Shown here in pieces: positions 1,059-10,665 of a stretch of 64,000 nucleotides of DNA. A program made the translations under genes and the position numbers. The notes below the pieces were generated by a model. It was not told where the DNA came from. It searched no databases and saw nothing but the letters and a program-made list of their open reading frames with translations. Position 1 is the stretch's first letter. Each line of letters starts with the position of its first letter. The DNA lies in contig CAMTPC010000004.1 of NCBI GenBank assembly GCA_947074295.1, positions 3 through 64,002 on the forward strand, in the 5' to 3' direction. The stretch is from an uncultured Bacteroides sp. (GTDB lineage Bacteria > Bacteroidota > Bacteroidia > Bacteroidales > Bacteroidaceae).

Positions 1059-1106
1059 AAAAAAAAATAATCTGCTATCTTTTTACATTAAGATAACAGA
1101 TTATTT
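1059..1106 (-). terminator. Intrinsic terminator of the oxalate/PFOR operon
   Basis: AAATAATCTG.TATCTT / AAGATA.CAGATTATTT stem, with the A-run at 1059-1067 giving a U-tract on the minus strand. Confidence 0.7.
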
Positions 1107-1138: not shown

Positions 1139-4100
1139 TTAATAAACATCTTTGGACTCATTGAGAATCTTATATAGTTCATCGCAGTCTTGTTGTAATT
1201 CTGCATGAAGTTCTTTAGCCTCATCGGGCATCATCTGCGTAAGAGCAGCATATCGATCTTCGCCTGCAAGGAAAGTAGGCATAGTTCCATCAGGTTGCTT
1301 GTAATCAACACTCAATGGATCTTTACCTGCTTTTGTCAAATCCGGATTGAATCTATAAAGTGCCCAATATCCACAAGCCACCGCATATCCTTCTTCCAAA
1401 ATGCTTGTACCCATGCCAGCACGCAGTCCTTGATTGATGCACGGACAATAAGCAATGACGATAGAAGGCCCTTCATATGCCTCGGCTTCACAAAGAGCGT
1501 TTATAGCATGTTGCTTGTTGGCACCGATGGCGATGGAAGCCACATATACATTACCATAGGTCATCATCATACGACCCAATTCTTTTTTATTGGTACGCTT
1601 ACCTGCTGACGAGAATTTGGCGATAGCACCAAGTGGTGTAGCTTTCGATGTCTGGCCACCTGTATTAGAGTAACATTCTGTATCAAGTACAAGTATATTC
1701 ACATTTTCGCCCGACGCCAACACATGATCAAGACCAGCAAATCCGATATCATAAGCCCAACCATCGCCTCCAATGATCCATACTGATTTCCTGCCAAACA
1801 TATCAGCATTGTTTCGCATCTCATTAAATATTGAATTATCAACGACATCTTTTATAGCCGATAATACTTTCTGGCCAAGTGCATAAGACTGATCTGGATC
1901 ATCTTTGGCTGCTTTCCAAGCATTAAGTGCTTGTTGAATATCTACCGGAAGATCCTTCATCGTTAGAGCCTCATCGACCAATAATTCCAACCGCGCTCTC
2001 CGTTGTTTCACAGCCGTAGCTATGCCATAACCATATTCAGCATTGTCCTCGAACAGCGAATTACCCCAAGCTGGTCCATGTCCATTCTTGTTTTTAGTAA
2101 ATGGCATACTAGGCATACTAGCCCCCCATATAGAACTACATCCAGTAGCATTAGCAATCAGCATTCGTTCACCAAACAGCTGTGTTACTAGTTTCACATA
2201 AGGGGTCTCTCCACATCCAGCACAAGCCCCAGAGAACTCCAACAATGGTTGAAACAACTGTGAGCCTTTGATGCTATTGCGTGGCAGCAGACCATCTTTC
2301 ATGGAGATATGCAACTGTGCAAATTCTAGATTAATGCGTTGTTCATCCACCTCATCACTATAGAGTTTAAACGACAATGCCTTGGCTGGACAAACATTGA
2401 TACAGCTACCACATCCTAGGCAGTCATCGGGATAGACCTGTATGCGATAGCTCAAATCCTTGAAAGCAGGACCACCTGTTGCAGCTTTTGTCGTAAATGT
2501 ATTTGGCGCACCATTCATCTCGTCTTTTGTAGGTAGATAAGGTCGTATCGCTGCATGAGGACATACAAAGGAACACTGTGTGCATTGGATACATTTATCA
2601 ATATCCCAATAAGGAATCTGATAGGCCACACCCCTCTTTTCATAAGCGGTAGTTCCCACAGGAACGAAGCCGTCTGGTGAAAATTTAGATACCGGCAGAT
2701 CATCCCCTTTCATCGCCAATATAGGTTTAGATACATAGCGAATGAAATCTGGTTCAATAACAGGCTTTTGAGGGTCATCTTTTGCGTCTTTCCATGCATC
2801 AGGATAGTTAATCTGAATCAATTCGGCAATGGCAGAATCTAAGGATTTCCAATCCTTATCAATCACGGCCTGACCTTCTTTGGCATAAATCCTTTGTATA
2901 TCAGATTTCAGTAAAGTAATAGCTTTATCGTAGTCAATGATATTGGCTAATTTAAAGAAAACTGCTTGCATAATCATATTGATGCGCACGCCCAATCCCA
3001 CTTCGGCAGCTACTTTCATTGCATCAATGTTATAGAACTTCAATCCCTTTTGGGCAATTGTACGACGCATTTGTGCGGGTAATCTTTTTTCCATATCTGC
3101 CAATGTCCATGCCGAGTTAAGGACAAATGTACCGCCAGGAATGATATCCTCCAACATATCAAACTCCTTGACATAGCTGCATTTGTGACAAGCCACGTAG
3201 TTGGCTCGCATGATAAGATAAGATGATAAGATAGGATCTATCCCAAAACGTAAATGTGATACTGTATAACCGCCTGACTTCTTCGAATCATGTGAGAAGT
3301 AAGCTTGAATATGCATATTGGTATTTTCGCCTATGATACGTGCAGCTTGTTCATTGGCACTAATCGTTCCATCCGAGCCAAAGCCATAAAACTTACATTG
3401 TATAGTTGATTGAGGAACGGGATCAATAACCTCATTGATTGATAAAGAGAGATGAGTGACATCATCATTGATACCAATCGTAAAAATTGGTATCAGTTTA
3501 GCAGACTGCATATTATCAAACACTGCTTTTACCATACTAGGCGTGAAATCTTTTGAACTCAATCCATAACGCCCACCCAAGACTTTAACTTTTAAATCAT
3601 TGGTTTGAATCGCTGTACAAATATCTTGAAAAAGAGGTTCGCCTTGCGCTCCTGGTTCTTTTGTCCGATCTAGAACAGATAAGATCTTAACAGATTTAGG
3701 AAGTGCTGCCAATAAATGCTCTACAGAGAAAGGACGATATAGGCGCACTTTAACTAGACCTACTTTCTGATTCTGCTTTAATAGATATTCCACCACTTCT
3801 TCCACCACATTGCAGCTAGATCCCATTGTGAGGATGACATATTCAGCATCAGGTGCACCTACATAATCGAATAGATTATATTGTCGTCCAGTAAGCTGCC
3901 CCACTTTCTTCATATTACTTTCCACAATGGCGGGTGTTGCTAGATGGAAGGAGTTGGATGCTTCCTTATTCTGGAAATATACATCGGGATTCTGGGCTGT
4001 GCCTCGCATATTTGGATTCTCAGAATTCATGGATCGTGCTCTGAAAGCATTTACCTTATCCCAATCAACCAATGGGCGAATATCTTCATAGTCAATCATC

Positions 4101-4651
4101 TCAATATTCTGAAGCTCGCTAGACGTACGCATACCATCCATAAAATGACAGAATGGAACAGATGAGTCTATGGCTGAAAGATGTGCAACCAAAGCAAGAT
4201 CCATGCACTCCTGGACAGAAGAAGAAGCCAAGAAAGCAAAACCGGTATGGCGACATGCCATTACATCTTGATGATCTCCAAAGATGGAAAGTGCATGTGC
4301 AGAAATAGAACGCGAAGTTACATGAAATACTGCTGGCAATAATTCACCTGCTATTTTGTACATATTAGGGATCATCAACATTAGACCTTGCGATGCTGTA
4401 AAGGTAGTCGTGAGTGCTCCACCCGATAAACATCCGTGCACTGCACCCGCAGCCCCTAGCTCCGATTCCATTTCATGTACCACCATGGTTTGCCCCATCA
4501 GATTCTTGCGTCCGTCCACTGCCCACTGATCAGCCAGCTCACCCATATCTGACGCAGGCGAAATGGGATAAATCGTAGCAGCGTCAGACATAGCGTAGGC
4601 TATATAAGTAGCGGCTGTACAGCCATCTACAATTTTTCTACTAGTAGCCAT
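1139..4651 (-). CDS. nifJ: Pyruvate:ferredoxin(flavodoxin) oxidoreductase family, homodimeric NifJ type; divergent copy
   Basis: YPISP, FTASQGL, ALSIFGDHQD, DSKKSGG, two CxxCxxCxxxCP ferredoxin motifs, ACAGCGE, TPP motif GDGWAYDIG..YSNTGGQ; 1170 aa. Confidence 0.93.
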   Translation of the reverse strand: MATSRKIVDGCTAATYIAYAMSDAATIYPISPASDMGELADQWAVDGRKNLMGQTMVVHEMESELGAAGAVHGCLSGGALTTTFTASQGLMLMIPNMYKIAGELLPAVFHVTSRSISAHALSIFGDHQDVMACRHTGFAFLASSSVQECMDLALVAHLSAIDSSVPFCHFMDGMRTSSELQNIEMIDYEDIRPLVDWDKVNAFRARSMNSENPNMRGTAQNPDVYFQNKEASNSFHLATPAIVESNMKKVGQLTGRQYNLFDYVGAPDAEYVILTMGSSCNVVEEVVEYLLKQNQKVGLVKVRLYRPFSVEHLLAALPKSVKILSVLDRTKEPGAQGEPLFQDICTAIQTNDLKVKVLGGRYGLSSKDFTPSMVKAVFDNMQSAKLIPIFTIGINDDVTHLSLSINEVIDPVPQSTIQCKFYGFGSDGTISANEQAARIIGENTNMHIQAYFSHDSKKSGGYTVSHLRFGIDPILSSYLIMRANYVACHKCSYVKEFDMLEDIIPGGTFVLNSAWTLADMEKRLPAQMRRTIAQKGLKFYNIDAMKVAAEVGLGVRINMIMQAVFFKLANIIDYDKAITLLKSDIQRIYAKEGQAVIDKDWKSLDSAIAELIQINYPDAWKDAKDDPQKPVIEPDFIRYVSKPILAMKGDDLPVSKFSPDGFVPVGTTAYEKRGVAYQIPYWDIDKCIQCTQCSFVCPHAAIRPYLPTKDEMNGAPNTFTTKAATGGPAFKDLSYRIQVYPDDCLGCGSCINVCPAKALSFKLYSDEVDEQRINLEFAQLHISMKDGLLPRNSIKGSQLFQPLLEFSGACAGCGETPYVKLVTQLFGERMLIANATGCSSIWGASMPSMPFTKNKNGHGPAWGNSLFEDNAEYGYGIATAVKQRRARLELLVDEALTMKDLPVDIQQALNAWKAAKDDPDQSYALGQKVLSAIKDVVDNSIFNEMRNNADMFGRKSVWIIGGDGWAYDIGFAGLDHVLASGENVNILVLDTECYSNTGGQTSKATPLGAIAKFSSAGKRTNKKELGRMMMTYGNVYVASIAIGANKQHAINALCEAEAYEGPSIVIAYCPCINQGLRAGMGTSILEEGYAVACGYWALYRFNPDLTKAGKDPLSVDYKQPDGTMPTFLAGEDRYAALTQMMPDEAKELHAELQQDCDELYKILNESKDVY

Positions 4652-4683
4652 ATTAGTTATTGATTTATGGTTATATATTCTTC

Positions 4684-5841
4684 TTATTTTTGTCTATTCC
4701 CAAACTCTTCACGAAGAGAAGTTCCTTCTTGATTTAGTTTTGGTGCCGGGGGGCGTGTTGATGAATCTGGAAAACCACTAATCTTGATAGGCATGCCAGG
4801 CATCATCACGCCTCCCGATTCGACTAACATTTTTCTATCATGTATTTCGGGAAGTTTCATCGCCTCTTCTACCGTCAAGATAGGACCAGCAGGGACACCA
4901 ACTTTATCGATTACCTTCAACCAATGATCGGCATTTTCATTCATCAATTTTTTCTCGAGTATTGTTTTAAGTTCATTCTCATGTATCACCCGTTCTTGAT
5001 TTGTAGCAAACCGTGAATCGGTAATGAGTTGAGATAAATCCAATGCCGAACAAAGTTTAGCAAAAAGATGATCATTACCACAGCAAATAGCTATGTATTT
5101 ATCTTTGGTCTTATAAATATCAAAAGGCGAAATATAAAGATCACGGTTGCCAACTCTCCCTGGCGACACACCTGTAGCTAGATAAGTGAGTAAGCCTTGT
5201 TCTAAAAAAGAAACAGCTGAGTCAAACATGGCAATATCTACATATGCGCCCCTTCCCGAGTGATTTCGTGCATAAAGAGCAGTTACAATACCACCAAAAA
5301 GATAAAGTCCTGTAGTCATATCAACCACAGAAGTACCAGCTCTTACTGGAGGCCCATCAGGGAATCCAGTTTGCATCATCAAGCCACTCATAGCCTGAAT
5401 GATAGTGTCGTATGCAGGAAATTGGGAAGCCGCTCCTGACTGACCAAAGCCCGAAAGCGATGCATAAATCAATCGGGGGTTCAAAGCAGATAACACTTCA
5501 TACGAAAAGCCGAGTTTCTCCATAGTACCAGGACGGAAATTCTCGGCGAGTATATCCGCTTGTTTCACCATGTTCAAGAAAATAGTCTTATCATCTTCTT
5601 TTGTTAAATCAAGCATAATACTCTCTTTACCTCTATTGACAAAAGAATATTCTAAGGATTCTCCTTTAACAAACGGACCCCAGTAGCGTGACTCATCACC
5701 ATCGGGAGGTTCCTCGATTTTAATGACTCGCGCACCAAGGTCGCAAAGTATGTTTGTGGCGAACGGTCCACTCAACACATGGGTCAGATCGACTACCAAT
5801 AATCCTGCAAAAGGACCTTGTTTTTTAGTTTCATTGTCCAT
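4684..5841 (-). CDS. yfdE: Class III (CaiB/BaiF) CoA-transferase, YfdE/UctC-like (acetyl-CoA:oxalate CoA-transferase family)
   Basis: GPFxGLLVxDxTHVLxGPF, ENFRPGTMEKLGFS, PAYDTIIQAMSG, catalytic Asp in GTSVVD, ICCGND; matches recalled E. coli YfdE end to end; operon position after yfdV. Confidence 0.85.
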   Translation of the reverse strand: MDNETKKQGPFAGLLVVDLTHVLSGPFATNILCDLGARVIKIEEPPDGDESRYWGPFVKGESLEYSFVNRGKESIMLDLTKEDDKTIFLNMVKQADILAENFRPGTMEKLGFSYEVLSALNPRLIYASLSGFGQSGAASQFPAYDTIIQAMSGLMMQTGFPDGPPVRAGTSVVDMTTGLYLFGGIVTALYARNHSGRGAYVDIAMFDSAVSFLEQGLLTYLATGVSPGRVGNRDLYISPFDIYKTKDKYIAICCGNDHLFAKLCSALDLSQLITDSRFATNQERVIHENELKTILEKKLMNENADHWLKVIDKVGVPAGPILTVEEAMKLPEIHDRKMLVESGGVMMPGMPIKISGFPDSSTRPPAPKLNQEGTSLREEFGNRQK

Positions 5842-5859
5842 TTAGCAGAGATTTTGTTT

Positions 5860-6879
5860 TTAATGCATATTGGCAACAAGTCCTGCCAGCCAATACCAGA
5901 AGGGGCAGGTTCCCATAAAGAGGAAGGTGCTCATTGCTAACGATGAGGTACCAGTCCGAACATAGATTTGGTAACGACTGCCAATGATAATTCCTGAGAA
6001 GGCTGGAGGCAATGCACCTGCCATAACCAACATTTGCAGATTGATAGGTTCCATATGAAACAACTTCCCGACAATCAACAATGCGCCAGGCATCAAGAAT
6101 AATTTAATAAGTGTATTGTAACAAATTTCCCAATCAAACTGAACTTTTTGTGCTGACAAGGTTACACCTGCAGCAAAAACGGCAACACCAGCATTAGCCT
6201 TAGCAATCAAATCAAATGTAGGATCCAACCCTTTTGGGAAACGAATACCTATAAGAATGAAAATTACTGCCAAGATAGGCGCCCATACAACTGGTTGTTT
6301 TAAAGCGTTAAGAAAAGCATTGCTTCCTTTTTTCTTTTTTTCAGGAGCAGCAGGTTGAGTTGGGGCAGCACCTGGTGTAGCTGTAGTGGTAGAAGATGCC
6401 GGAATAGGTGTGGTGTCTGGATCTAATAGGTAGAGACCAATAGGAATAGTAATAGCATTAACCACAATGGCTACGATTGCAATCACCAAACCAGTACTTG
6501 TATTAAAACCGTAAATAGGTTCTAATACGGCAAATCCCAAGAATCCAATAGTAGGAGAACCAGCTATCAAAGCACACACCGCAGCTTCTTTCTTACTATG
6601 TTTGAAGAACTTCTTGCAACCGAAGAAAGCCCACATGAAACATGCTACAATTACCACAATACTGATGATTAATAGCTTCAAGTCTTCGAAAAGCAAATGC
6701 CTATCAGCCTTAACTATAGACAAAAACAAAGCAGCAGGTAAAGCGTAGTTCAATACTAGTTTATTGAAGCTTCGCGCGTTTTCTCCTGTAAAAGCATTTG
6801 TTTTTCCGGATAAGTATCCGAGTAGCATTATCACGAATATAGGTAACAATGCATTTAATATCATTTGTCCAAATTCCAT
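5860..6879 (-). CDS. yfdV: AEC (auxin efflux carrier) family transporter, YfdV-like; probable oxalate/formate carrier
   Basis: [44 protein letters not shown]; ~10 TM; lies between oxc and yfdE as in E. coli. Confidence 0.88.
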
Positions 6880-6899
6880 ATAATAGAGTTTATGATTTT

Positions 6900-6942
6900 A
6901 ATTGCGTGCTGCAAGTGTTTATCATTCATGCAGCACACAATT
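6900..6942 (-). other. Intercistronic stem-loop (oxc/yfdV), no U-tract
   Basis: AATTG.GTGCTGCA ... TGCAGCAC.CAATT. Confidence 0.55.
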
Positions 6943-6961
6943 ATTTCAGGTTAGTAACTGA

Positions 6962-8689
6962 TTAACTTTTCAATGCAGTCGAAGGGTTCAAATTACCAAT
7001 ATGCCCACTTTCCAGACCTACTGAGGGATCGATCTTCACATCAATCATACAAGGTTTTTTAGAAGCAATTGCTTCAGTTAACGCTTTAGTCAATTCGGCT
7101 GGCGTTTCAGCATAATAAGATGTTCCACCAAAAGCTTCAATAATCTTCTCATAATGCGCATCAGGCATCAAAGTTGTAGGTGATGGATCGGTTCCACCAC
7201 TTAGATTAGGGCTATCGCCCTTATAGATACCGCCATTATTGAATACTACAACCGTAATGGGAAGTTTGAAGCGACACATTGTTTCTACTTCCATTCCACT
7301 AAATCCAAATGCACTATCACCATGGATAGATACTACTTGTTTGCCGGTAGTAATAGCTGCTCCTAGTGCGAAACCCATACCAATACCCATTACGCCCCAT
7401 GTACCACAATCCAATCGTTTCCGTGGTTCGTACATATTTATCACATTACGAGTATCATCGAGAGTGTTAGCACCTTCGTTCACTAGATAGTAATCTCTTT
7501 GTTTATCTAATACATCACGTACAGCTTTAAGGGCATTGAAAAAATTCATAGGTTCGGCAGTCGAAGCCAACTTAGCTTCCATTTTCTGAGCATTCACAGC
7601 TTTATCCTTATTGATGGCATCCATCCACGAAGGATCAACTTTTATTTGATGTTTTGCTAACCCATCAACAAATGCCTGCATACTTGAAACTATATCACCA
7701 GCTACGGGAGCATCTATAGGACGATTGCTGTCAAACTCCTTGGGTTCAATATCAAGTTGCACAAATTTAACTGCTGGATTCCAATGTTTACCTTTTCCAT
7801 GGCCGAGCAACCAATTAAGGCGCGCACCTATCAGAATAACCACATCCGCACCTTTCATTACGAATCCACGAGCAGCAGCGGCACTTTGTGGGTGATCGTC
7901 AGGTAACAAGCCCTTAGCCATAGACATAGGCAAGAATGGAATACCTGTTTTCTCGATAAATGCTTTGATGGTGTCATCAGCTTGCGCATAAGCAGCACCC
8001 TTACCCAAGATAATCAAAGGACTCTTAGCACTTGCAATCAAAGAAAGTGCTTGGTCAACAGAGGCGGCCGAAGGAATTGAAGCTGGAGCAGGATCTACAA
8101 CTGTGAAAAGTGTCTTATCTGCTTCATCTTGATCCATGGTGGCTGCAAGCATAGCTGTTGTTAAATCCAAATAAACACCTCCAGGACGACCTGAAGTAGC
8201 CGCACGAATAGCTCTCGCTATACCAGTAGCTACATCTTCAGGCTTATTAATACGATAGGCTGCTTTACAAAAAGGCTTAGCAATATTCATCTGATCCATT
8301 TCTTCATAGTCCCCTTGCTGAAGATCAATTATGGCACGATCACTAGAACCACTTATCTGAATCATAGGGAAACCATTAGTTGTTGCATTGGCCAATGCTG
8401 TGATTCCATTCAGGAAACCAGGTGCAGATACTGTCAAACAAATACCAGGCTTTTTCGTTAAATAACCAGCAATTGCTGCAGCATTCCCAGCCGATTGTTC
8501 ATGACGGAAACCAATATAACGTATACCTTCTTCTTGTGCATGACGTGCCAAATCTGTAACAGGGATACCCACAACTCCAAATATAGTATCTATTCCATTC
8601 TTTTTTAAAGCTTGAACTACGATGCGCATACCATCAGTGAGATTCTGAGGCTGTGCTTGAGATTGGGTTTGATTTTGTTCTGTTGTCAT
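6962..8689 (-). CDS. oxc: Oxalyl-CoA decarboxylase
   Basis: GVVGIPVTDLAR, FRHEQ, LTVSAPGFLNG, QQGDYEE, NEGANTLD, GTWGVMGIG, TPP motif GDSAFGFSGME..NN, C-terminal ESGHIGNLNP. Confidence 0.96.
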   Translation of the reverse strand: MTTEQNQTQSQAQPQNLTDGMRIVVQALKKNGIDTIFGVVGIPVTDLARHAQEEGIRYIGFRHEQSAGNAAAIAGYLTKKPGICLTVSAPGFLNGITALANATTNGFPMIQISGSSDRAIIDLQQGDYEEMDQMNIAKPFCKAAYRINKPEDVATGIARAIRAATSGRPGGVYLDLTTAMLAATMDQDEADKTLFTVVDPAPASIPSAASVDQALSLIASAKSPLIILGKGAAYAQADDTIKAFIEKTGIPFLPMSMAKGLLPDDHPQSAAAARGFVMKGADVVILIGARLNWLLGHGKGKHWNPAVKFVQLDIEPKEFDSNRPIDAPVAGDIVSSMQAFVDGLAKHQIKVDPSWMDAINKDKAVNAQKMEAKLASTAEPMNFFNALKAVRDVLDKQRDYYLVNEGANTLDDTRNVINMYEPRKRLDCGTWGVMGIGMGFALGAAITTGKQVVSIHGDSAFGFSGMEVETMCRFKLPITVVVFNNGGIYKGDSPNLSGGTDPSPTTLMPDAHYEKIIEAFGGTSYYAETPAELTKALTEAIASKKPCMIDVKIDPSVGLESGHIGNLNPSTALKS

Positions 8690-8696
8690 AAATAAT

Positions 8697-8703
8697 ACCT
8701 CCT
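8697..8703 (-). promoter_or_regulatory. Shine-Dalgarno AGGAGGT upstream of oxc
   Basis: Minus strand TAGGAGGT-attattt-ATG, 7-nt spacer. Confidence 0.8.
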
Positions 8704-8726
8704 AATTAAAAAAAATACTTGAAAAT

Positions 8727-8755
8727 GTCTTGTAGCCGGATATCAACTACAAGAC
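8727..8755 (-). other. Intercistronic stem-loop (frc/oxc)
   Basis: GTCTTGTAG ... CTACAAGAC perfect 9-bp stem. Confidence 0.6.
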
Positions 8756-8767
8756 TTCTCTACTTAA

Positions 8768-10057
8768 TTATTTGCAAACTACATGATCAGCGCGGAATTT
8801 AGCAATATCCGCATCAGTATAGCCCACTTCTTTAAGAATAGCATCTGTATCAGCACCCAATGCAGGAGCTGGAGTTACAACAGGCGTAAAACTTGAGAGT
8901 TTTGGAGGACAACCAATAGTAACGAATTTACCACGTTTAGGTTGATCTACCTCTACCAAAGTGCCACATTTATAAAGTGACTCATCCTTCATAATCTCGA
9001 GCATGCTCAATACAGGACCACAAGGAACACCCGCTTTGCCCAAAACATTCACGATATCTCCTTTTTCTTTATTGATAGTATATTCTTCTATACCTTTGTA
9101 GAGTTCTTCTTTTACCAGCTGACGTGCTTCAGCGGTATTAAATTTAGGATCAGTTATCCATTCGGGCTTTCCTAGAGCCTCGCAAGCTTCGTTGAATGCC
9201 TTTGCCTCATTTTGCAATACGATGTACACATATGCATTTGGATCAGTTTCCCAACCTTTACATTTGTAGCACCAGCCCAAAACTTGACCACCTTCAACAT
9301 TTCCAGCACGTGGAACGGCATCACCAAATTTCTCACCTGGATATTGTGGAAGATGCTTCAATACATGAATATTGTTGAGCATGATCTGGTCACGAAGTTT
9401 GATACGACAAAGATTCAATACTGCATCTTGCATTGATTGCTGAACAAAACATCCTTCACCGGTCTTTTCACGTTGCATTAGTGCTGCTAATAGGCCGATA
9501 CACAGATGCATACCAGTATTGCTATCACCTAGAGCAGCGCCTGATTGGGTTGGAACGTTATATTCGCCTTCCCACCATCCTGTAGTAGATGCTGCACCAC
9601 CTGCACACTGAGCTACAGGCTCAAACGCTTTCACACTAGCATAAGGAGAATCATCGTTAAACCCTTTAATAGTGCCATAGATACATTTTGGATTCATTTT
9701 ATGTACATCTTCCCATGAGAAGCCTAATTCATCAGCAGCACCTGGATGAAGATTCTCTACGAAGATATCAGCACTTTCAATGAGTTTTGTGAGAATTTCC
9801 TTTCCCTCGGGAGATTTTGCATTTAATTCGATTGAACGCTTATTACAATTCAATTGTAAAAAGTACAAACTATCAAGATCAGGATAATCAAGAAGTTCAG
9901 TACGCGTTGGATCTCCTGAACCAACACGTTCAATTTTAATCACATCGGCTCCTAACCAAGCCAACATTTGTGTACAAGACGGACCAGATTGTACTTGAGT
10001 CCAGTCTACAACTTTAATACCTTTTAATGGTGCAACATTTTGTGAAGTTGAAGCCAT
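8768..10057 (-). CDS. frc: Formyl-CoA:oxalate CoA-transferase
   Basis: [24 protein letters not shown] (catalytic Asp), [24 protein letters not shown]; adjacent to oxc. Confidence 0.95.
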
Positions 10058-10064
10058 AATAATT

Positions 10065-10070
10065 CCTCCT
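10065..10070 (-). promoter_or_regulatory. Shine-Dalgarno AGGAGG upstream of frc
   Basis: Minus strand TAGGAGG-aattatt-ATG, 7-nt spacer. Confidence 0.8.
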
Positions 10071-10133
10071 AGTTAAAATTGTGTTATATTAAAAATCTAT
10101 GATATAGATAATTTATTCTATTTCATTACTTTA

Positions 10134-10157
10134 AACACATTTTTAGGAGGAATGTTC
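10134..10157 (-). promoter_or_regulatory. Candidate ECF-sigma-type promoter GAAC-N16-TGTT for the frc operon
   Basis: Motif recurs upstream of several other genes in the window; ~77 nt upstream of the ATG. Confidence 0.4.
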
Positions 10158-10665
10158 AGGTAATAACTTGGAGTCATTAAGTTTAAATTTCTAAACTATT
10201 AACAAATCAAAGTAGGATATAATTGTTTAATAGAACATTAAAAAAGGCAGAATAGAACAAATTGAAAAATATAACAATAATCTATCTAGTTGTCAATTCA
10301 CACACTATATAATTTCGTTTAGCTTTGTTATAAAAGTGGGTTTATTTCATCTACTTCTCGTATCTTAAAATATCAAATTCGAAAATATATCCGATTAATT
10401 GATATATTTAGGAAAGCAAGAATATTAGCTATAAATTACGATTATCTATATAAGATAAATATGATCAGCAGATCAAATAAGGATAAAAGAATTATTGAAC
10501 AAAATATTAAATTCAGAGTCATTTTAATATTCGATATAAATCCATCCTAGATCATTACTTTTTAAACCAAATAGCTAGTCACTCATTATACAAATAAGTT
10601 TTTTTAACTATAAAGATTTTATCTAAGAAAAGTGCAAAAATAAGTATTTAGCTCAAATCAGATAA

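Follow-up and report, generated by a model that had tools for sequence, protein, structure and literature searches.

The DNA analysed here, a stretch of 64,000 nucleotides from an uncultured Bacteroides sp. (hereafter the window), carries an operon-like group of oxalate genes that ends in a full-length gene for a pyruvate:ferredoxin oxidoreductase (PFOR), and we find that this PFOR is a member of an old, Bacteroidales-only paralogue clade, which we call PFOR-B. The conserved unit is frc-oxc-yfdV-PFOR, that is, the genes for formyl-CoA:oxalate CoA-transferase (Frc; CoA, coenzyme A), oxalyl-CoA decarboxylase (Oxc) and a permease (YfdV), together with the PFOR. A preliminary description of the window had proposed that the PFOR belongs to the oxalate module, and this core proposal is upheld by the presence of a second PFOR in the genome, by the conserved linkage and by the clade that the oxc-linked copies form. 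Comparison of sequences makes it very probable that PFOR-B is functionally coupled to the oxalate pathway, whatever the reaction that it catalyses. As to that reaction, our preferred account, to which we give a probability of about 0.45, is that PFOR-B is a pyruvate-handling isozyme adapted to run alongside the oxalate cycle.

The gene set consists of five open reading frames (ORFs), all on the minus strand of the window between positions 1139 and 10057, in the order frc-oxc-yfdV-yfdE-PFOR, and the ORF coordinates give the same co-oriented layout and the same spacers of 78, 82, 18 and 32 nt that had been described before. The PFOR-B gene (1139..4651) encodes a single-chain, nifJ-type 2-oxoacid:ferredoxin oxidoreductase of 1170 residues, which matches TIGR02176 with 1727 bits (cut-off 911) over model positions 2-1161 of 1167 and shows the complete Pfam domain order of POR_N, PFOR_II, POR, EKR, two Fer4 and TPP_enzyme_C. 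The linkage is no artefact of chimeric assembly, since 15 contigs, drawn from four or more independent samples, encode an identical PFOR protein amid the same genes.

The window PFOR is an extra paralogue, distinct from the housekeeping nifJ. A search for a second, canonical nifJ elsewhere in the window's genome (G000), as suggested in the preliminary description, found one, of which contig C167 holds a C-terminal fragment at its end (L002:1468-1812); this fragment is 46% identical to the window PFOR and 86% identical to the single PFOR of congeners that lack oxc. Within the genus oxc is present in 2 of 25 genomes, the window's own and G006, and the latter has the same five-gene cluster with the same flanks, a PFOR 81% identical to that of the window and, again, a fragment of a second PFOR. 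All of another five genomes with an oxc-linked copy likewise have two PFORs, and all five oxc-less congeners examined have a single PFOR of the ordinary type.

Several assemblies have the housekeeping PFOR broken at contig ends (G000:C167, G006:C12, G041:C22, G362:C40, G490:C59/C30 and G615:C27) and PFOR-B intact, which is probably an assembly effect in a highly conserved gene shared by co-occurring strains. Such breakage can make metagenome-assembled genomes (MAGs) appear to have a single PFOR; in one PFOR-B genome, G200, the housekeeping PFOR was not found at all. The two oxc-positive genomes of the genus, G000 (88% complete) and G006 (90%), gave no match to pyruvate formate-lyase (PFL; TIGR01255); it is present in the oxc-less congeners G002 and G011, and most of the Muribaculaceae tested are without it.

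Gene order was surveyed in species-representative genomes around the 80 closest PFOR loci, and at no fewer than 17 of these, all from other species, oxalate-operon genes stand beside the PFOR, as frc-oxc-yfdV where the contig is long enough and as oxc and/or yfdV alone on shorter contigs; their sources are Muribaculaceae, cultured isolates included, and one MAG labelled Prevotellaceae (L015). In all, frc-oxc-yfdV-PFOR is found at about 20 species-level loci with flanks that differ each time, and clustering of the neighbours leaves frc, oxc and yfdV as the sole conserved neighbours of linked PFORs, the flanks being lineage-specific. The gap between yfdV and the PFOR ranges from 11 to 131 nt across loci; it is 11-27 nt in the window-type operons of other families (G255 and G362 in f87, G394 in f132) and 65 nt in L015, all of them without yfdE. 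Among the PFOR-linked operons fetched, yfdE occurs only in the window's genus, i.e. in the window and G006. The identity of the oxc-linked PFORs falls to about 55% across loci with the linkage still kept.

The linked PFORs form one group with 100% support, both in a FastTree tree of 92 sequences and in an IQ-TREE tree of 38 sequences under LG+C20, and this group has two subclades, one of window type and one of Muribaculaceae. Housekeeping Bacteroidales PFORs fall elsewhere in both trees, beside Firmicutes enzymes. The preliminary description had asked whether oxc-linked copies form a clade and whether the neighbourhood recurs across Bacteroidales, and the answer is yes in both cases, with the linkage kept across several families and not specific to the strain. 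It had also named two outcomes that would refute its interpretation, namely that this was the only PFOR of the genome and was transcribed independently, or that the linkage was unique to this strain and the enzyme had ordinary pyruvate kinetics with no oxalate-related phenotype; neither is the case, given the second PFOR and the multi-family linkage.

Some members of the clade depart from the common picture. The oxc-linked PFOR of the Prevotellaceae-labelled MAG (L015:10001-13513) is interrupted by an in-frame stop (TAA, codon 625) within the linker that precedes the EKR domain, and is either a pseudogene or the product of a sequencing error. A 16-kb contig binned as Paenibacillus sp. (L071) carries frc-oxc-yfdV-PFOR-B nested among Duncaniella-type sequences, and is most likely a mis-binned Muribaculaceae contig. 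In one Muribaculaceae MAG (L021:1-7433) PFOR-B adjoins frc but is divergent from frc-oxc-yfdV, so that adjacency is kept and operon structure is not. A long-branch variant, found in the Muribaculaceae genus g237 (G488:C28:14549-17950, G573, G614 and G623) and in L041, has ORFs of 1250-1297 residues whose match to the clade profile ends at about 1120-1136 of 1171, which suggests a diverged or extended C-terminus.

The distribution of PFOR-B relative to oxc was determined in two samples, one of 401 genomes from 148 families of the order and the other of 201 Muribaculaceae genomes at least 90% complete; both are part of their groups and include many MAGs. In the order sample seven genomes have both genes, none has PFOR-B only, none has oxc only and 394 have neither. 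The top seven matches to the PFOR-B profile (1954-2178 bits; the next scores 1638) are exactly the seven oxc-positive genomes, and in each of them PFOR-B and oxc share a contig, some 1 kb apart. Among the Muribaculaceae, where hits of at least 1750 bits were taken as PFOR-B (the next score below being 1552), the raw counts of genomes with both, PFOR-B only, oxc only and neither are 61/1/56/83 (Fisher P = 3e-17, a value that overstates the evidence because the genomes are related). The lone genome with PFOR-B only, G537, has its oxc split over two contig ends, which corrects the table to 62/0/56/83.

Over the two samples, none of some 477 oxc-less genomes has PFOR-B, and it is present in about half of the oxc-positive Muribaculaceae sampled and in all oxc-positive genomes sampled from other families. 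The distribution is thus nested: PFOR-B occurs only where oxalate genes exist, and oxalate genes often occur without it. The dependence extends to PFOR-B genes that stand apart from the operon, which is the case in 20 out of 61 PFOR-B genomes of Muribaculaceae that were counted as oxc-positive (in the other 41 it is adjacent to oxc); in further genomes with an unlinked PFOR-B, oxc was present elsewhere in 10 of 10. Genomes with oxc only, closed ones included, showed no remnant of PFOR-B and no consistent replacement gene after yfdV.

At the protein level PFOR-B has the architecture of the homodimeric nifJ-type PFORs (D. africanus, PDB ID: 1B0P; M. thermoacetica, PDB ID: 6CIN), with the same domains I-VI, three cysteine sets for [4Fe-4S] clusters and a thiamine diphosphate (ThDP) motif, and it aligns over its full length to the Moorella and D. 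africanus enzymes at about 1500 bits (1516 bits for 6CIN). The cysteine ligands (C687/690/693/697, C744/747/750/754 and C810/813/838/1071) and the ThDP/Mg motif (G962-D963-G964) are invariant in the clade alignment; the assignment of the cysteine sets to particular clusters presumably follows the D. africanus numbering. In D. africanus PFOR, pyruvate is contacted by Thr31 and Arg114 at the carboxylate and by Leu121, Ala219, Ile843 and Asn996 in the methyl pocket (PMC5020499). This pyruvate-type first shell is kept in PFOR-B as S/T31, E64, R114, L121, I123, A219, I841 (equivalent to D. africanus 843) and N996. Position 31 is Ser in all six sequences of the window-type subclade and Thr in the rest of the clade, a conservative change, and E64 is what we take to be the ThDP-activating Glu.

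Where PFOR-B differs from the homodimeric enzymes is in being a separate clade, found only with oxc, that has fixed changes beside each active-site residue and in domains II-III. Near the first two catalytic positions, Ser33 of other PFORs (49/49) is replaced by Ile, Val or Ala (42/42), Gln62 (49/49) by Glu (41/42) and Ala or Gly at 65 (49/49) by Leu (41/42). Around Arg114, Ser112 (49/49) gives way to Gly or Thr (42/42), Ala113 (49/49) to Cys, Thr or Ser (40/42) and Ala or Thr at 115 (49/49) to Ser (41/42), and close to N996 the Val or Ile at 993 (50/50) is Cys throughout the clade (42/42). In domains II-III, Thr369 (48/49) is changed to Phe (42/42), Asn or Val at 490 (49/49) to Lys (42/42) and Tyr497 (48/49) to Phe (41/42). 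All four active-site loops thus carry clade-fixed second-shell substitutions, and an excess of clade-specific positions falls no more than three residues from T31, E64, R114 or N996 (5/24, P = 2.4e-4). The CoA domain is retained, with clade-specific changes of its own at 437, 455/456, 490 and 497. The substrate-loop substitutions that had been pointed out in the window PFOR are thereby found to be real and general to the clade. Between the window and G006 the PFOR gene has a nonsynonymous divergence (dN) of 0.13 with synonymous divergence (dS) saturated, which indicates purifying selection.

We favour a pyruvate isozyme because the first-shell pocket is unchanged. According to this account the five genes would make up a single operon through which oxalate is taken up and decarboxylated by the YfdV permease, Frc and Oxc, with YfdE acting, in the window's genus, as an acetyl-CoA-dependent primer of the oxalate cycle. 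PFOR-B would still run the CoA-dependent reaction pyruvate <-> acetyl-CoA + CO2 + reduced ferredoxin; it would be an isozyme whose properties suit a cell loaded with oxalate, oxalyl-CoA and formyl-CoA, and it might tolerate oxalate or the oxalyl- and formyl-CoA thioesters. Co-expression with the importer would keep up the supply of thioester (acetyl-CoA, which YfdE could use directly here) and the flow of electrons to ferredoxin while the Frc/Oxc cycle is running. The conservative reading of the preliminary description was that the PFOR supplies acetyl-CoA to YfdE; as a general role this fails, as yfdE was found only in the window's genus and the operon elsewhere is frc-oxc-yfdV-PFOR, though it may be true locally.

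Several points weigh against the isozyme. All of the support for a function of PFOR-B, for the clade as a whole as for the window protein, is comparative. A literature search gave no report of an ordinary PFOR being inhibited by oxalate, oxalyl-CoA or formyl-CoA, and the tolerance to these compounds is something that we infer. Since acetyl-CoA is already made by the housekeeping PFOR, we have to assume that the cell needs a second enzyme for pyruvate, and the substitutions beside the catalytic residues would suit a different substrate just as well. Of 118 oxc-positive Muribaculaceae 56 lack PFOR-B, which makes it accessory and not essential. Physical linkage could account for part of the co-occurrence, in that one deletion removes all four genes, but it does not account for the unlinked PFOR-B cases or for the persistence of the operon down to about 55% identity. 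Finally, the upstream regions of frc and of unlinked PFOR-B genes share no 10-mers beyond chance, and no dyads are enriched over shuffles in 23 frc upstream regions.

The alternatives differ in whether PFOR-B has taken on a new substrate or has no special role at all. The more novel suggestion of the preliminary description was a glyoxylate:ferredoxin oxidoreductase, or a formyl-CoA carboxylase in reverse (glyoxylate + CoA + oxidised ferredoxin <-> formyl-CoA + CO2 + reduced ferredoxin), working either as a ferredoxin-dependent carboxylation of Oxc-made formyl-CoA to a C2 acid or as a means of feeding glyoxylate into the Frc/Oxc cycle as formyl-CoA. Formyl-CoA is common to Frc and Oxc, so such an enzyme would be useful only where Frc accepts or supplies it, which would explain the nested distribution and the restriction of PFOR-B to genomes with frc and oxc. 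The clade changes flank T31, E64, R114 and N996, and two of them, S33I/V and A65L, put bulkier side chains close to the catalytic centre and might make a smaller substrate preferable; the enzyme still has its CoA domain, which carries changes of its own, and there is chemical precedent in archaeal 2-oxoacid:ferredoxin oxidoreductases, some of which turn over glyoxylate 89-105% as fast as pyruvate (Table 1, PMC13768988). However, the methyl-pocket residues L121, A219, I841 and N996 are unchanged, and our search of the papers available turned up no description of such an enzyme. The role is further weakened by the lack of the usual outlets, as neither glyoxylate carboligase (above cut-off) nor malate synthase was found in 16 genomes; what remains is transamination to glycine or reduction to glycolate, and no source of glyoxylate was identified. 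On balance we think this reading doubtful, but if it is true, the PFOR family would gain a new reaction, and the anaerobic oxalate and C1 metabolism of dominant gut Bacteroidales would gain a new branch.

A plainer possibility is that PFOR-B is an ordinary, redundant PFOR carried as a passenger in an operon that spreads and is lost as a block, the co-occurrence arising from linkage and shared history. It scores well over the PFOR equivalog cut-off with the same first shell as pyruvate PFORs, many genomes have the oxalate genes without it, and in the 41 of 61 Muribaculaceae with adjacent genes a single deletion would take both. A passenger would hardly be expected, though, to stay linked down to about 55% identity with every flank reshuffled, to be absent from all of the oxc-less genomes, to be under strong purifying selection or to have its clade substitutions concentrated at the active site; moreover, oxc is kept in all 20 Muribaculaceae with a non-adjacent PFOR-B, though oxc loss is common in the family, and we consider this reading quite unlikely. 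Still less likely is that PFOR-B oxidises oxalyl-CoA or oxalate to two CO2 and reduces ferredoxin, as a functional analogue of the oxalate oxidoreductase (OOR) of Moorella thermoacetica, a member of the same superfamily that is also tied to oxalate catabolism. Such a reaction would recover low-potential electrons that are otherwise lost in formate, which is presumably excreted, as the alpha subunit of formate dehydrogenase was not found in any of the 16 genomes; PFOR-B does depend on genes that form oxalyl-CoA, and its clade changes lie beside carboxylate-binding residues and in the CoA domain. Yet OOR is a three-subunit enzyme that works without CoA, in which Thr31 is replaced by Arg and the pocket is remodelled, and the Moorella enzyme shares only the Arg with PFOR (PMC5020499). 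PFOR-B has none of these hallmarks: it is a single chain of 1170 residues with a YPI(T/S)P motif, thus Ser or Thr and no Arg at position 31, it keeps the hydrophobic PFOR pocket, and it scores 81 and 64 bits with the OOR alpha (NF045791) and beta (NF045792) models, far below the cut-offs of 500 and 590, so that we reject an OOR-like enzyme as such. Release of free CoA would presumably also drain the self-priming Frc/Oxc cycle. We likewise set aside, as a general role, a cycle of PFL and PFOR that would oxidise formate to CO2, as PFL was not found in G000, G006 or four of four PFOR-B-positive Muribaculaceae (one of them a 2-contig genome). A mosaic origin of the operon, with foreign frc and oxc joined to a native PFOR, gave no clear signal either way (identities of 59-65% to E. 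coli and 54-65% to Muribaculaceae).

The remaining genes of the operon are readily assigned. The product of frc (8768..10057, minus strand, as are all of the features that follow) has 429 residues, matches TIGR03253 over its full length with 648 bits (cut-off 504) and has E. coli YfdW as nearest solved structure (560 bits). That of oxc (6962..8689; 575 residues) matches TIGR03254 with 939 bits (cut-off 739), contains the N, M and C domains of TPP enzymes, and is nearest to E. coli Oxc (PDB ID: 2Q27; 822 bits), to which it is 65% identical. The yfdV-type permease of the AEC family (5860..6879; 339 residues) matches NF007384, 'transporter YfdV', with 414 bits (cut-off 404) and PF03547 with 201 bits; its substrate is presumed from gene context to be oxalate or oxalate/formate. 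A search of the 88%-complete genome with TIGR04259 gave no match to OxlT, in agreement with its reported absence. The acetyl-CoA:oxalate CoA-transferase homologue YfdE (4684..5841; 385 residues) scores 572 bits with NF008511 (cut-off 522) and 521 bits with the E. coli YfdE structure (PDB ID: 4HL6) in a full-length match (residues 6-381) at about 59% identity. At residues 232-235, approximately, the window protein has GNRD and 4HL6 has GNRH, so that it departs from the GNxH pattern, a loop proposed to bear on YfdE specificity.

The operon ends in an intrinsic terminator (1065..1106) with a 17-bp stem and a U9 tail (-23.6 kcal/mol, z -4.8). The preliminary description had called this the single clear terminator; the strong one after the PFOR is confirmed, but strong hairpins are also present in two of the spacers. 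That in the frc-oxc spacer (8727..8755) is followed by a U-rich run (minimum free energy, MFE, of the spacer -24.7 kcal/mol, z -6.2) and is possibly a partial terminator or an mRNA-stability element; in a second helix of this spacer (8690-8767) the U-run is base-paired to AGGAGG, where ribosomes would bind to translate oxc. The other (6904..6938) lies in the oxc-yfdV spacer (6880-6961; MFE -24.6 kcal/mol, z -5.9), and both are predicted elements that could set differential expression or mRNA stability inside the operon. The 32-nt spacer between yfdE and the PFOR has no structure, and no Bacteroidota -7 box (TAnnTTTG) is found on the coding strand over 1.5 kb upstream of the PFOR start, which fits co-transcription.

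Perfect TAGGAGG Shine-Dalgarno sites are unusual for Bacteroidota, and here both frc and oxc have one 7 nt before the ATG (10058-10070 and 8690-8705); no site of this type was found before yfdV, yfdE, the PFOR or the adjoining genes. Upstream of frc is a 608-nt AT-rich region (10058..10665; about 28-33% GC) that we presume to be promoter and leader, with a single, distal TAnnTTTG box at 10642-10635. A search of Rfam with the leader and spacers gave no meaningful family match.

A close relative of the window operon is the yfdXWUVE operon of E. coli, known for oxalate metabolism and acid tolerance, which has the same order of frc-oxc-yfdV-yfdE, encodes proteins 59-65% identical to those of the window and supplies the nearest solved structures for Frc, Oxc and YfdE alike. 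The annotated record reads yfdX-frc-oxc-yfdV-yfdE with no PFOR, as the preliminary description states. In E. coli yfdX lies upstream and evgS is convergent after yfdE, whereas in the window the ORF upstream of frc is PepSY-like and not YfdX, and the PFOR follows 32 nt after yfdE; with no yfdX and a PFOR appended, the window operon is not of the E. coli type. Another close parallel is the oxalate set of Muribaculaceae (S24-7), described as frc and oxc with an adjacent permease, patchy in the family and rare elsewhere in Bacteroidales (PMC4936053, PMC6381624). The set of Ormerod (2016) and Lagkouvardos (2019) has the same three genes in the same order as the window but, as published, makes no mention of a PFOR, whereas in our comparison a PFOR paralogue joins them as a conserved fourth gene in about half of the oxc-positive Muribaculaceae. 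The words 'ferredoxin' and 'pyruvate' have zero occurrences in the former paper (PMC4936053), as does 'ferredoxin oxidoreductase' in the latter (PMC6381624), and literature searches that included a November 2026 review of PFOR diversity (PMC13768988) found no PFOR tied to oxalate genes in Bacteroidales.

The enzyme families and the oxalate genes are already known; what is new is a conserved, pathway-dependent fourth component. Gut bacterial oxalate degradation protects against hyperoxaluria and calcium-oxalate stones, and Muribaculaceae are dominant carriers of oxalate genes in rodent guts. That selection maintains a conserved fourth gene which depends on the pathway implies that the Bacteroidales version probably does something beyond the textbook two-enzyme cycle; candidates are a coupling to ferredoxin and acyl-CoA pools, a shielding of central metabolism from oxalate-pathway intermediates, or a new formyl-CoA/glyoxylate reaction. 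PFOR-B offers a testable case of PFOR subfunctionalisation, with C993, non-Ser33, E62/L65, K490 and F369 as diagnostic residues and with cultured strains at hand, such as Duncaniella muris, Heminiphilus faecis and Muribaculaceae Isolate-002. It can also serve as a marker that divides oxalate degraders into two genotypes in metagenomes, and its association with the pathway hints at an unrecognised extra step in a process relevant to kidney-stone biology.

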